Shown piece by piece: positions 916 to 6,900 of a stretch of DNA of 64,000 nt. Position 1 is the stretch's first letter; each line of letters opens with the position of its first letter. The DNA is taken from assembly GCF_058153355.1 (NCBI RefSeq), contig NZ_CM177019.1; one strand, 5' to 3'. The position numbers are program-made.

Positions 916-3900
916 TGATGAGGGACACGGTGCCTGTTTCATAAAGATCATTTATACCCGTCATACTTCAAGTTGCATATGCGTTGGCAAGTTATTCAGG
1001 GATAGCCGGATGAGTGACATCACCATCCGGCTTAAGATTCCATACTCTAAATAATTCGAGTTGCAGGACAAAACGCCAGTGGCGTTTTGAACAACTCTTG
1101 CGTTGACCCTGAAAGGGTGAGGCCTAAGGCCGAGTAACGCGACAGGCGAGTGACAAATTCGTCGGGAACGAATTTGACCAGCCTCTGGCTGGCCTTCGGT
1201 GAAAGGCATCCTGCCTTTCAGTCATCCCCAGTCACTTACTGGGGTGAGCGACAAATCCGCATGGAGCGGATTTGAACGCTGCTTGCAGCGGTCCCGTAAG
1301 GGGTGAGGCCCATGGATGGGCCGAATAACTCGCAGACGCAGCACATGCAACTTGAAGTATGATGGGTATATACACAATGAACTTCAAGACACTTGCTTCG
1401 GTATCTGGAAATTATCATTAATTCTGGATGAGACCAGCCTTGCTATATCTGGCAACGTTTCTTCAAAAACGTCGATATTGTATCCCTGAAATCTCACGCA
1501 CTGCTGAACCGGCATGTTCATTCATTATTTATCCAGGCCATTTGCAATCAGTACCATCACTATTATATGCCTCAATATTTTCTTCAAACTCAGTTATTTT
1601 TCCACTTTTCGATTTATAGTAAGATCTATTAAATATTGCACCCTGCGTAGCAACAACATACAATCCGTTGACTTTACACCCTATAACCTCACTCCATGTA
1701 TAAGTAAACTCTGAAGGTCTATCATCGAAAGTCATTTCCAATATTTCGTAAATGCAGGAGGTATGAATTTTGAGGACATTCCATAAACCACATAACCTAA
1801 AACAACATCACCAGAAGATACTTCAACAAATTTTAAATTTATCTTCCCCAAAATAAAACAGCCAACCGTAGTTTGTTATTTAGCAAGTAAGAAAAAGGGC
1901 ATCAAACAAAACATTAAAACAAATAATTTAACTTTCATATCATTTACACCAATTCAGTTATTCGCCTCTGTACAAAAGCACACACAGATTTTGAATTAAT
2001 GGCGTCCAAAAACATAATCGGATAAAAATACCACACCGGAATATTACTGATATAGCGGGATCTTACTCATTCGCTAAACTGAAAATGCAATTGAACAGAA
2101 ATTTCTTACTAGTGTTTAGATACTCGAAAAGGAAATCAACTCACTGGCAAGTATCATAAGCTCAAATTGGCATATTGTATATTCCCATAAATAATTTTAT
2201 TTTTTTGATTAACATACTCAATACTACACATCACTAATTGAGAGAAGATTAACTTCATCATCTTTGATTAGGTACGTTTTTTAATTTTCAATGACGCATC
2301 ATAAAAAAGGGCTTCCCAAGTTTAACACTAATAACAGGATATAAAGAAAATATATTGCTATATGAATCCTTTGGCGATGTTTTGGTTATCGTAATCTTTC
2401 CTTCTTTCAAGTGCTCTGCTATTATATGAAATTGAATCGGTCTTGTTGCATCACTTACCCGCAATGGATTGCCAGCGTAAGCTTCATACCCTCCACCATT
2501 ATTCATATGTAAAATAGTGTATTCGTCATTTAAAAATGGCTGCTTACTATCGTAGACTTGGTAGTATATATTACTTATATCAAGATAAATTACTATAGAG
2601 ATATACTTAATTTTTCATTTAGCATTAACGATGTATCCATGGAATCTATACATCTTTCAATATCAGTTATTTTTTCTTCTATATACGTAGCATAACTTTG
2701 TGGCACTGGCGTGTTTAGCCCTCATATACCCTCTTTAACTAAGACACCATTTTGCTTGCTTTTTACATTGTAATAAAGACAATCAATATTGGATTTATTA
2801 TTTTTATATTTCAGTGTTGTATATACAGTAAAATCATGCAGCGAACGCCCATCTGAAACAATTGCGGGCGTGTCAGAAAAAAGTCAAATGAATAAGATGG
2901 ATTATTTTCATAATCAGTCATAAATTTCATCTTTCTTATTTCATGATCAACGATCGCATAGATCTCATGATTAGATTCATCATATCCATAAATGATTTCA
3001 CCACCAGTACTGGCAGTAGCAGTAGCAGTAGCAGTAGCAGTAGCAGTAGCAGTAGCAGTAGCAGTAGCAGTAGCAGTAGCAGTAGCAGTAGCAGTAGCAG
3101 TAGCAGTAGCAGTAGCAGTAGCAGTAGCAGTAGCAGTAGCAGTAGCAGTAGCAGTAGCAGTAGCAGTAGCACTACTACAAATCAACATAATTACAAGTAC
3201 ATATCTAGTCAAGTTGAAAACCCTTAGGGGCGGATGATGTTTTTTCCAAGATGGATTGAAATTTTTCAACATAAGAATCCATTAATTGCTTCTGATATTT
3301 TTCATTAATTATTTTTCGCGTATTATCATATTAAATTTTATCACTATTAATATATTTGGGGATTTTTACTCGTAAAAATCCCCGCCTCCATTCCCCAAAT
3401 CATAATTGATACAGGACACAACTCTAGCAATGGTATCGTGAATAGTTTTCTTTAATAAGGCACGTCTCAATTCTTGAACATAAATTCGAATTATTTAGTA
3501 AAAAAACATCATCCCTGGTAGTATTACCTATTTTTGCATAATGCTATATTTATAGTAAACAATTCACAAGAAAATATTATTACTAATATTTATATTCCTC
3601 CCACTGAGCACCATATCGATGCTTTAACAGTTCAACTTTAATTTCATCATATGTTTTAACTTTACTACCATCAATCTTAAGACGAATTTTATTCGAGGTG
3701 ATATCAACATAATTTCTATTTTCCCCACCCGCGGGGAAAAAATCAAACATAAAATTAGACATGTTTTGTTCTTTTTTCATGAGAGCTCCATATTCACACA
3801 TGTCATTTATATTTTGTATGTATGGAGCGCCCCCCTGACATGATGGATAATGAAAATCAATTATAATAAAAAGCGATTTATTGATACTCCTCTGAAAGAA

Positions 3901-6900
3901 CCACTTATTATTTACAATACGATAGGTTAAAGATTTAAATGTATACCAGTGACTTCCTGGAAGAAAAGAGTAAGCTTCATTAAGATTGACAGTAAATACC
4001 TTAGTTTCTCCAGAGGAAAGCTTTACCCATTCTGATTTTATATCACAATTATCGCCCATGCCAAAATAAAGCTCATCATTGGCATCATCCTCAAAAAAAT
4101 CACATATATTGGTTGCGGAAGGACGGAATTTCAGATAGAAACCACTTGTGGATATTAAAAAAGAATCCTCACATAAAGGAGAAAAAAAATAAGGCTCCGA
4201 TGTGTGTGAGGAGATAGGTAATAATCGTCTATGAATGAAATTTTCGCTCCCCCCCAAATTTGTAAAACTTATTTTTGCTAACACACGAGAGTCAATTTGC
4301 TTAACGGTTAATCTAACATCAACATCAAACATGTTACGATTTAGCAATTTTTCCTCGACTCCGTCAGTGTAATGTGATGACTCAAGTATATTGTCCTCAA
4401 GAGTCATCGAATTTAATTTTTGTTCAGAAACATATTGTGTAATAACCTCATCATTGCAGTATCCATGAAATGAAATAAACATTAGCACTGCAATCTTAAC
4501 TAATCTCAAAATACTTTTCAATATTGTATGCATTATTAAAAACCAGCGGGTCATGTTTTGATTTTAATTCTTTTGCATTGGCAATTTCTCTTTTTTTCCC
4601 AAATCGTTACTGCTTAATCCACCATAATACTGTTCTCCATCCCAGATAATAAAAAGGTGAGATAACTCATGGCATAATGTGGAGACTCGAGAGTTTTCTC
4701 CCGTTGGATTTTTACATGTGAAATTTTGTAAGATATCTATAGATATTCTGTCTCGATACTCTAACTTTAAAAGTTCAGCCTTCGACTTATTTTTATACTC
4801 ACTACTTTGTTATTGGGGCCGATTTAGATCTATATGAGTCGTCTGAGCAGCCGGTATACGGGCTGAGCCATTGACTAAATTGGTATAATTTTTAAAATTG
4901 CCATATATTAGTTGTACATTATCTTGCGTTCGAGTTTCAATGATCAAGCTATCACAAATCATGATCATTCTGTAAACCCCCTCTTTTATAAAACTATGTG
5001 CGTCAATATTCTTGGTTTGTGGAGTGAAGTTCCCATTATTATCTGACTTTTGACAAGGAGCATAGTGTTCCATTGTTATAATAGCATCACCTGGTAATCC
5101 AAATATATCTTCAAAATTTGTCTGATCTGCTGGTGTCCATGCTTCCAGATTTTTCGCTCTGATATTCAATACTCGCTTTGTTTCTTTCAAAGCAGGGGTT
5201 ATCATGTTGTAAAATTGATCAGTAACCTTTGCTTCTTTTTTACACACATTGCCTTTTTGAGTTACTCCTTGTGAACTTCCTTTGTTATTATTCATAAACA
5301 CCGCCCTCAATCATATCTATACTTTGATGCAATAGCCTGACTTTTATCGTCTGCTCACTGTCAGTGATAAATATTTCCGTATACCCATCCTTATCCGTTT
5401 CCCCTCGCGCTTGTGTGCCGTCCTCAAAAAAGGCAATGTAGCGTGTTTCTGAATACGGTATCCCGTCATCGTCTGTAAAATGAAACTGGAGGGTGTATTT
5501 CTCAGGTTCATCCTTATCTTCATTGTCGTTCCCAGAATCATTTCCATCGCCACCACCGACCCCGCCATTGCCTTGCCCGCCCTCTGCACCACCATCTTTA
5601 TCACTACCTTCATCCGTCAGTGCCTCCAGCACGCCCGGTTGCAGTGTCGGTACCGGAGTCCCCGGACTACCCCCACCATTCAGATTTATCTTCGGCCCCC
5701 AGGGAAAGATTACGAAAGCCCGCTCCCCGCAAGGACTGACGCCAGATACTTTCTGTCCATGGCTGCTTTTCGCATCTTACGTCTTAACCCTGCCTTGAAT
5801 ACCTTATCATTCGTCAAAATATTAATAGCGATGTGCCGTATCCCTGAAAATAATTCTGCTGCATTTCCTCTTCTTATTTTGCAGTCGTCTTCATTCATTA
5901 CCACGTCCAGACGCCAGTGCAGCTTATTCTCCACGTGCCCGTGGTTTCGGATTGCTGTGGCGAACTTCTCTGCGGTTAAATCAGCAGAACTGATATAATA
6001 TCTGACCGTCATTTCTGGCTCTTTCTTTTGTTCTGCTATTATGGACCGAAAGGAGACTGCCACGCATAATTTCTTCAGCCCTTTCCATTCAAACGTGAAA
6101 TCAATAAGTTCATCAGGGACATCGCAAACAATATGAAGACGGATTTCTTCTCTGCCGTGACTAAAATGCGAATTATTTAGTACAAAAAAAGCGGCGCACC
6201 TTGTTCTTTCCCAGATTCCTAATATGGCAACTTTAAGTTATCGCCGTCTATACTTATAGAAATTTCATCAGGGGTGACGTAAATAGAATTTTTTTCATCC
6301 TCAATTGCCCATAACTGATTAATAAAAAAGTGTTTTTTTTCATCTAATAACAAATTATCACATGTAGTAAAATTATTAATATCAAAAAGATCATCAGCAC
6401 AATTAATTTTTAAATTTAAAAAATAAAGAAAAATATTATTGATTGATTTGAGTGTAAACCACTTGTCATTAACAAATTTATAGCCAGATGATTTTATAAA
6501 ATAATAATTATCTCCTGGTATAAAGGCATACATATCATTTAAGGTTATACTCAACAAAAAACTACGACCTGGTTTAATAGTATTCCACCGTTCAGGATTC
6601 GTATTAATTTCAAAAGGACATGAACCACCTAAGTAGTCCAACGTGATATTCCCAGAGTTGATTCTGAATGGTTTTTTGCATATTGCATCATATTCATCTC
6701 CTTTTCCATCTTTTACTTTCATAGGTAGATAATATTTAGAAAAAAAATACGTGGTAGAGCTTTTGTTAGTAAAGGTTATGTTAGCAAAAATCCTGTTATT
6801 TTTTTTACTCATAGCTAATTGAGCATTGACATCCGCTATATAATTTATATGATTACATTTTTTCTTACACTCATCATAATTTTCGATAGGATAAATTAAT

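Follow-up and report, generated by a model that had tools for sequence, protein, structure and literature searches.

Why should a type VI secretion system (T6SS) island keep, directly behind an intact operon of vgrG, effector and immunity gene, a second set of the same three genes in which little of the vgrG is left and the effector is broken? The question is raised by contig NZ_CM177019.1 of assembly GCF_058153355.1, from which a window of 64,000 nucleotides (nt) was analyzed; positions given below are those of the window unless another sequence is named. Every island gene downstream of mnmH lies on the minus strand, and in order of transcription vgrG1, the effector gene eff1, the immunity gene imm1 and the C-terminal part of an ISAs1 transposase are followed by the orphan module, which consists of a vgrG2 remnant, eff2 and imm2 (Table 1). 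The initial annotation had described this module as the last part of a VgrG, a paralog of the HExxH effector with its catalytic segment in a shifted frame, and an intact immunity paralog, and had taken retention of immunity beside a decaying toxin to be the expected outcome of displacement by recombination at vgrG 3' ends. From sequence comparisons we consider it very likely that window 5697..3583 is an older resident cargo module which was stranded behind a newer cassette, and that its toxin was then lost in this lineage.

Paralogy of the two modules

Alignment of the orphan and main modules at the nucleotide and protein levels upheld the three-part paralogy. The vgrG2 remnant is 64% identical at the amino acid (aa) level to residues 675-804 of VgrG1 (tblastn E 1e-50) and 75% identical over 328 nt, so the 114-aa open reading frame (ORF) does represent the end of a VgrG, with the full remnant being somewhat longer (Table 1). 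It comprises a Gly/Asp-rich linker and a C-terminal domain of about 70 aa that is variable between the two modules. Because the gp5/DUF2345-like spike domains detected in VgrG1 with Pfam stop at about residue 676, where the remnant starts, the remnant lacks the gp5/DUF2345 part. A sequence search with the vgrG C-terminal domain against the PDB gave no significant match; by analogy with VgrG1 of enteroaggregative Escherichia coli and with VgrG2b the domain may be transthyretin (TTR)-like.

With the intact eff2 allele as the query, eff2 and eff1 are 29% identical (BLASTP E 1e-24), which agrees with the paralogy first proposed for the HExxH effector. The imm2 and imm1 proteins share 25% identity over 224 aa (BLASTP E 1e-20 with compositional adjustment); they are homologous and the immunity paralog is indeed intact, but at this low identity protection by imm2 against eff1 would be unlikely. 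Judging from its orthologues, imm2 most likely starts at ATG 4533, and the orthologous immunity proteins encoded next to an effector, including those of Enterobacter and E. coli, are 311-317 aa in length. All members of the immunity alignment (A2) have a hydrophobic N-terminus, which in imm2 is signal-peptide-like, and two invariant cysteines, features which fit export of the immunity protein to the periplasm.

The eff1 product is identical to WP_000342580.1, annotated as 'M35 family metalloendopeptidase', and imm1 differs by one nt (99.878% nt identity) from the copies in E. coli N96 (L001) and MFDS1022581 (L002), which are annotated WP_001355187.1. The order given by the NCBI Prokaryotic Genome Annotation Pipeline (PGAP) in both of these genomes is ybbP, vgrG, 'M35 family metalloendopeptidase', hypothetical, ISAs1 fragment, hypothetical (114 aa), 'M35 family metalloendopeptidase' (266 aa), hypothetical (316/323 aa) and, farther on, mnmH. 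The orphan architecture, in which a 3' fragment of a carrier gene lies with its cargo behind an intact vgrG with other cargo, recurs in N96, MFDS1022581 and many draft contigs.

The junction between the ISAs1 fragment and the vgrG2 remnant

The two modules are separated by a transposase fragment of the ISAs1 (H-repeat) family of insertion sequences (IS). NCBIfam model NF033564 (transpos_ISAs1) matches it with E 2.3e-27, and since the match is confined to profile positions 241-314 of 314 the element is 5'-truncated; the PGAP label is 'ISAs1 family transposase, missing N-terminus'. Its outer terminus, …TCTTTCCCTG, lies at about 5707..5698 and carries CAGGG, the typical end of ISAs1-family elements. 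The vgrG2 remnant begins at 5697, immediately after this terminus, and the junction reads …CCCTG / GGGGCCGAAG (junction sequence TCTTTCCCTGGGGGCCGAAGATAAAT).

A Logan contig (L020) that is 99.5% identical to window 5699..3506 carries the same tail at the end of a 415-aa vgrG, and in that contig the frame runs on upstream of the junction point. The two sequences read …GTGGATATCGTG / GGGCCGAAGATAAAT in L020 versus …TAATCTTTCCCTG / GGGGCCGAAGATAAAT in the window, from which it follows that the remnant and the outer end of the ISAs1 fragment adjoin without a gap. By this comparison the 114-aa ORF is the truncated end of a once longer vgrG. The L020 module sits beside yafT and T6SS core-cluster remnants.

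Evidence for an incoming cassette

T6SS core clusters of Phytobacter ursingii (L004) and Enterobacter soli contain a full-length vgrG whose stop codon is overlapped by an effector gene, the effectors having 60-65% identity. The immunity protein encoded next is 317 aa long in Enterobacter soli, and its homologue in Phytobacter is 225 aa. An E. coli paralogue with 66% identity likewise follows a vgrG, which is cut by the contig end. The order of vgrG, overlapping effector and immunity gene is found for orthologues or paralogues in L004, L005, L006 and L015-L019, as well as for eff1/imm1 in the window; upstream of the window eff2, the carrier is merely the 136-codon vgrG remnant.

A cassette of the incoming type, with the order PAAR–vgrG–M35–immunity–ISAs1 fragment, is located at the yncG–yddH locus of strain 118UI (L003). 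From about position 8700 to the IS terminus the window is 94-100% identical to the 118UI cassette (99% nt identity for the eff1 copy), while the 5' 1.4 kb of the window vgrG is only about 70-85% identical. The homology is uninterrupted from vgrG through the ISAs1 fragment and stops at 5691-5698. A three-way sliding identity comparison was made between the window vgrG1, the vgrG2 of L020 (the orphan lineage) and the vgrG of 118UI (the donor). Over 9067-8888 vgrG1 is 98-100% identical to L020 and 77-90% to 118UI, over 8890-8290 identity is high to both, and over 8287-7845 the values are 40-78% for L020 and 97-100% for 118UI. These identities mark vgrG1 as an apparent chimera, with the 5' part and core of the resident lineage, the 3' cargo-specific part of the incoming lineage, and a crossover zone at about 8890..8290. 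Such a switch of identity would be left by an incoming cassette that recombined within the conserved core of the resident gene and moved the resident 3' end and cargo downstream. Of the displacement originally envisaged, the orphan module behind an intact paralogous one stands and is joined by a chimeric vgrG1, but the placement of the join at vgrG 3' ends does not: the left crossover would lie in the gp5/beta-helix core, and the right boundary is the ISAs1 terminus.

Shared gene order and orientation together with homologous proteins could also result if one module had been duplicated in tandem at the locus and the copies had then diverged, instead of an incoming cassette having displaced a resident. 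However, the cargo proteins are 25-29% identical as against 93-100% for the adjacent vgrG cores, a 99-99.5% identical copy of each module is found elsewhere (in L003 at yncG-yddH, and in L020 near the yafT/T6SS remnants), and an ISAs1 terminus marks the join. Tandem duplication is as such highly improbable.

The displacement that we favor would have begun with a resident module, made up of a vgrG C-terminal extension, an M35-like effector and a periplasmic immunity protein, in the vgrG island at ybbP-mnmH(selU). A second cassette, carrying a vgrG 3' part, eff1, imm1 and a 5'-truncated ISAs1, and present in nearly identical form at yncG-yddH in other E. coli, would then have entered the locus. 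On the left it would have recombined within the gp5/beta-helix core, a conserved part of the resident vgrG, and its right end, the ISAs1 terminus, now lies against codon ~675 of the old vgrG. The outcome would be an intact operon of chimeric vgrG1, eff1 and imm1, behind which the old module was left without a spike gene of its own. In this lineage eff2 then took on Tyr162→TAA and lost one A from an A8 run, while the immunity ORF stayed intact. From homology, the T6SS would carry effectors of this family on the VgrG tip, their HExxH…D zinc site would make them toxic in the target periplasm, and the immunity protein would be exported and neutralize the effector. The module as found here could at most give immunity against relatives still firing eff2. 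Expression of imm2 is predicted to occur, presumably, by read-through from the vgrG1 operon. In a scan of 3300-6300 no minus-strand terminator-like site was found between the two modules, and the 15 promoter-like sites found in the same interval versus 12.1 expected are at chance level and uninformative on imm2 expression.

A genus other than Escherichia also offers a stacked or orphan arrangement: at positions 8410-12307 of L004 (Phytobacter ursingii), downstream of the vgrG, effector and immunity genes, there is a second vgrG, N-terminally truncated (441 aa), and behind it lie two unrelated genes and then a PAAR gene.

Two lesions in eff2

The window eff2 differs from the intact 266-aa alleles by two inactivating lesions (Table 1). 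Intact alleles include WP_001063571.1 and P0041, the latter being the window's allele minus the lesions. The catalytic segment is not in a shifted frame as had been supposed: a six-frame translation places HIDLNRPQ, the TAA stop, QSSEYKNK and STLCHELSH all in one frame, which is that of the 166-aa N-terminal ORF. The frameshift lies after the candidate zinc-ligand Asp and displaces only the last ~30 codons (…NAYNIEKYFEIS), including the invariant NAYNIEKYFE motif. STLCHELSH is present in the window DNA, but because it is downstream of the TAA stop the HExxH of the window eff2 is not translated, and the translatable product is a 161-aa N-terminal fragment without this site. Additionally, the effector remnant does not end at 4606, the boundary first given, but reaches 4496 and overlaps the start of the immunity ORF.

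A length change in a homopolymer, as in one of the lesions, is a classic error, and many frameshifts in draft genomes are also -1 changes in 8-nt runs, which could suggest that the decay of the effector is a sequencing or assembly artefact of the window. However, only one of the two is such a change, the other being a C→A substitution, and both lesions are found in an NCBI assembly (L021, GCA_043012465.1) and in two Logan assemblies of separate SRA runs (L022, SRR8656992; L023, SRR28786219), all 100% identical to the window over 2.2-2.5 kb. Because three independent public datasets carry both the TAA and the A7 run, the lesions are real, an artefact is scarcely credible, and resequencing is not expected to restore eff2; the effector is broken and was not misread. 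An exact-sequence look-up in public data found both the 161-aa truncated product and the window's imm2 allele. Two lesions together with an intact immunity ORF are shown for this lineage. In annotation, the 161-aa 'hypothetical protein' should be read as a pseudogene fragment and the 114-aa one as a vgrG remnant.

State of the four genes among strains

In about 90% of carrier contigs eff2 is intact, with the full 266-aa ORF found in N96, MFDS1022581 and most draft contigs. The intact 266-aa alleles P0039, P0040, P0041 and P0001 occur in 97, 17, 11 and 5 contigs, respectively. Rarer truncated versions are 161 aa (the window allele), 243 aa (P0043, a second allele background in which the A8→A7 slip recurs), 226 aa (L020, through another frameshift) and 192 aa (N-terminus lost). 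Gene states were tabulated for the two-module loci that could be read. All of eff1, imm1, eff2 and imm2 are intact in N96 and MFDS1022581, imm1 is broken in L007, imm2 is broken beside an intact eff2 in L029 and L030, and L028 has eff1 and imm2 broken with eff2 intact. In L033-L036 eff1 is frameshifted in its own A8 run while eff2 and imm2 are intact, and in the window eff2 is broken while eff1, imm1 and imm2 are intact.

L033-L036 are the closest relatives of the window, with 9 differences over window 3310-8290. Three of these nine differences kill a gene and all three are in effector genes, which is suggestive, the sample being small. The eff1 lesion of L033-L036, A8→A7 at eff1 nt 436 (window 7420; e.g. 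L033:4442-5237), is the reciprocal of the window state. The cross-strain comparison therefore supports the claim that immunity was kept and the toxin lost in this genome, but not as a rule at the locus, nor is toxin decay the expected outcome: eff2 is intact in most carriers, L033-L036 broke eff1 and L028-L030 broke imm2. Care should be taken in that one genome is no evidence for 'immunity kept, toxin decays', as either effector or either immunity gene can break. The occurrence of intact eff2 beside broken imm2 speaks against a regular delivery of the stranded effector into sister cells. The natural allele set should be usable for cross-immunity work within one polymorphic M35-like toxin family.

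Most of the cross-strain frameshifts are -1 changes in 8-nt homopolymers, and these runs might be slippage switches (contingency loci) that toggle individual toxins, instead of sites of one-way decay. The A8→A7 change of eff2 is found in two allele backgrounds (the window and P0043), that of eff1 in L028 and in L033-L036, and T8 and A8 slips are found in imm2 and imm1. However, 8-nt runs are short for phase variation to be efficient, the window copy also has an irreversible nonsense codon, and some of the slips in draft genomes may be sequencing errors, and we hold such switching to be very unlikely.

A different function would follow if the stranded module were a working reserve weapon, with the VgrG C-terminal piece as an adaptor loading eff2 and the window strain as a recent loss variant. 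The high proportion of carrier contigs with full-length eff2 and the two complete genomes with all effector and immunity genes intact would agree with this, as would ratios of nonsynonymous to synonymous substitution rates (dN/dS) below 1 between allele groups (0.39 for eff2 and 0.27 for imm2 versus the N96 allele, from fewer than 20 substitutions each). A separately encoded, vgrG-derived DUF2345^PAR has also been reported to bridge VgrG and an M35 effector in E. coli PAR (PMC10673891). However, the window remnant is without the DUF2345/gp5 part, the GTG start of the 114-aa ORF has no visible Shine-Dalgarno sequence, and the combination of intact eff2 and broken imm2 in L028-L030 would be self-harming if eff2 were delivered; moreover, the 'stand-alone' gene of PAR is annotated as part of a frameshifted vgrG. 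A reserve weapon is thus unlikely in our judgment. Slightly less likely again is that stranded modules are a usable second arsenal, in which the VgrG tail would be a detachable adaptor and the homopolymers would switch toxins by lineage. If this were true, the window, with eff2 off and eff1 on, versus its sister group L033-L036, with eff1 off and eff2 on, would represent toxin switching.

Identity of the effector family

Relatives of eff2 are found in only 22 clusters among 5.8 billion proteins, all from Enterobacterales, and neither eff2 nor eff1 matches a Pfam or NCBIfam family significantly. Within the 23 family members aligned (alignment A1), C208-H209-E210-x-S212-H213 is invariant, as are GG…D231 and F-x-NAYN-x-E-x-YF. 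The invariant D231, situated within GG[LM][GS][ST]xD about 18 residues past HExxH, is a candidate third zinc ligand; the segment is GTxD-like, with the xxYG part absent. When PDB sequences were searched with an eff2 family profile, GfMEP (E 1.1e-3) and also AsaP1 were picked up through the motif TG.dS..TL.HE.SH. The AlphaFold2 (AF2) model of eff2 has a predicted local distance difference test score (pLDDT) of 88.4 and a predicted template modeling score (pTM) of 0.84, and when it was searched against the PDB with Foldseek the top six hits were all AsaP1 or GfMEP (probability 1.00, E 1.5e-3 to 9e-3), the next hit having E 0.7.

AsaP1 (2X3A) and GfMEP (1G12) resemble eff2 in the motif TG.dS..(S/T)L.HE.SH followed by a later Asp, the candidate third zinc ligand, and in fold, with a template modeling (TM) score of up to 0.64 on the target. 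They differ in having only 13-16% identity to eff2, in that Aspzincin_M35 is not significantly matched by eff2, and in being secreted proteases with propeptides instead of T6SS cargo. By motif and by model, eff2 is M35/aspzincin-like, a distant relative that does not match the curated family model significantly.

Points against the displacement reading

Several points weigh against the stranding of a resident toxin module as reconstructed here. Support for the M35 membership and the function of the effector is indirect; the best i-Evalue of Aspzincin_M35 (PF14521) among the 23 members is 4.5e-3, and eff2 itself is without a Pfam match. Neither imm1 nor imm2 has a significant Pfam or NCBIfam family, and the AF2 model of imm2, made from a 7-sequence alignment, has a pLDDT of 39 and is unusable. 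The chimera is read from about 200 nt of strongly discriminating sequence, and its reference, the vgrG of L020, is itself N-terminally truncated. Against a selective retention of immunity, each of the four effector and immunity genes is broken in some lineage, and the dN/dS values come from the small number of substitutions given above. The right-hand join may be either a crossover within an ISAs1 copy already present in vgrG2 or an illegitimate, IS-end-mediated join. Mismatch density is 4.5% in the IS part versus about 1.1% in eff1/imm1, and this excess is only a hint in favor of a crossover within an ISAs1 copy; an intermediate with a complete ISAs1 in vgrG2 was not found.

Two contigs, L031 and L032 (P0057), were considered as possible carriers of an uninterrupted vgrG2 at ybbP-mnmH but are uninformative, as they begin exactly at the junction.

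Other features of the island

The GC content of the island is about 29-38%, versus about 57% in the flanks. A tblastn search of window 1-3650 and 10200-12500 gave no further decayed modules of the same family. In L034 (GCA_900499355.1), positions 1-4452, tssC, tssB and hcp directly precede the two-module array and replace the ybbP-side sequence, with mnmH still downstream, which shows that the two-module array can occupy the end of a T6SS core cluster.

Table 1. Positions of the main and neighboring features in the window
Feature	Position	Strand	Description
mnmH/selU	34..918	+	Window starts inside this gene
ORF downstream of imm2	2811..3272	-	153-aa hypothetical ORF with hexanucleotide repeat
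Hexanucleotide repeat	3013..3171		(GCAGTA)×26.5, perfect; encodes (Ala-Thr)n tract
imm2, orphan immunity gene	3583..4533	-	Intact, 316 aa from ATG 4533 (323 aa from ATG 4554)
eff2 pseudogene, M35/aspzincin-like	4496..5295	-	Two inactivating lesions relative to intact alleles
eff2 lesion 2	4591..4597	-	A7 run, A8 in intact alleles; -1 frameshift after codon ~234
eff2 lesion 1	4810..4812	-	In-frame TAA, TAC (Tyr162) in intact alleles; C→A substitution
vgrG2 remnant	5288..5697	-	Last 136 codons of putative resident vgrG; listed ORF 5632..5288, 114 aa, GTG start
ISAs1-family (H-repeat) transposase fragment	5698..6171	-	5'-truncated, outer terminus intact; transposase C-terminal part 6171..5710
imm1, main immunity gene	6219..7040	-	Intact, 273 aa
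eff1, main M35-like effector	7064..7855	-	Intact, 263 aa, HEMSH
vgrG1	7845..10250	-	Intact, apparently chimeric; TIGR03361 (E 8e-177), Pfam domains, three-way sliding identity
Second ISAs1/H-repeat 3' fragment	10532..10711	-	79% nt identity to the 5698..6171 copy
Small ORFs	10757..11065, 11116..11472, 11569..11784		Beyond the second ISAs1 fragment
Group II intron	11973..14331	-	Complete; Rfam Intron_gpII 11973-12049, group-II-D1D4-7 14132-14279
Intron ORF	12054..13796		580-aa reverse transcriptase/maturase with HNH tail, TIGR04416 (E 6e-111)
Neighbor of 6224-aa ORF	25803..29136		Holds ORFs of 300-450 aa
6224-aa ORF	29140..47814	-	Single ORF
Neighbor of 6224-aa ORF	47923..49278		Holds ORFs of 300-450 aa

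Just downstream of imm2 lies an ORF with a perfect hexanucleotide repeat. The repeat-bearing ORF is 129, 127 and 125 aa long in the closely related L033, L034 and L035, which indicates that the copy number of the repeat varies by 6-nt steps among near-identical strains. Just upstream of vgrG1 there is a second ISAs1 fragment, which together with the three small unassigned ORFs beyond it may be what is left of an older Rhs/H-rpt element at the hot spot. A group II intron lies between ybbP and the vgrG island, and this element of about 2.35 kb is missing from the corresponding site of N96 and L033. The 6224-aa ORF has the look of a giant, repetitive adhesin or an RTX-type exoprotein, the ORFs that flank it being its candidate export genes.

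Comparison with known systems

The C-terminal domain of Pseudomonas aeruginosa VgrG2b (PA0261) is a T6SS metallopeptidase of the HExxH type that acts in the periplasm and has a periplasmic immunity protein (Wood et al. 2019, PMC6899460), and the M35^PAR effector of E. coli has been equated with this domain (PMC10673891). VgrG2b differs from eff2 in that its toxin is fused to VgrG, eff2 being a separate cargo gene. No VgrG2b chain appeared at E≤1 in the PDB profile search with the eff2 family, and Foldseek gave AsaP1 and GfMEP only.

The closest described pair is that of E. coli PAR (L027), in which M35^PAR (AKO63_2955) kills E. coli when targeted to the periplasm and AKO63_2956 neutralizes it (PMC10673891). 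Identity to M35^PAR is 35% for eff2 (E 8e-45) and 30% for eff1 (E 1e-32), and identity to its immunity protein is 32% for imm2 (E 8e-30) and 31% for imm1 (E 3e-21). The pairs of PAR and the window belong to the same protein superfamily and in both cases lie directly downstream of a vgrG. However, the PAR pair is a different subtype (30-35% identity) and is located inside a T6SS cluster at metV and not in the ybbP-mnmH island, and unlike M35^PAR the window eff2 is a pseudogene behind a vgrG remnant. A T6SS cargo function of the window pairs is thus suggested by analogy with the 35%-identical M35^PAR pair, studied by heterologous expression. In the PAR genome (NZ_CP012379.1 2970120-2972637) the published VgrG^PAR and DUF2345^PAR together form one vgrG pseudogene in the PGAP annotation ('frameshifted; internal stop'). 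In the PAR cluster there is also a second vgrG, which is intact and has a further M35-like/immunity pair (246 aa and 203 aa) behind it.

A recombination hot spot within vgrG has been described in agrobacteria, where a crossover in the core swaps the C-terminal cargo-specifying part along with the downstream effector and immunity genes (PMC8546570). The window vgrG1 resembles this pattern, but the exchange in the window would have been additive, in that the previous 3' part and its cargo genes remained downstream and were not replaced.

Displacement itself has its model in Vibrio cholerae (Kirchberger et al. 2017, PMC5361080), where recombination through the conserved gene upstream brings in a new effector-immunity module and moves its predecessor to the 3' side, and the immunity gene of the predecessor can survive as an orphan. 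The orphan C-terminal modules of Rhs and CdiA can be grouped with it as related known systems. The kind of element found in the window is as such already known, and a homologous effector-immunity pair has already been characterized in E. coli. As reconstructed here, the window agrees with the V. cholerae model in having the newcomer upstream, the old module pushed 3' and the old immunity gene kept. It departs from the model in that the event would have kept the whole old effector and the vgrG C-terminal extension, with decay by point lesions coming later; at the locus as a whole the effector is intact in most strains, the right boundary is an ISAs1 end and retention of immunity is inconsistent. 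With donor-like copies at two other loci and both recombination boundaries, the chimeric vgrG core and the ISAs1 terminus, visible at the base level, the locus appears to be a clean example of E. coli stacking T6SS toxin-immunity cassettes.

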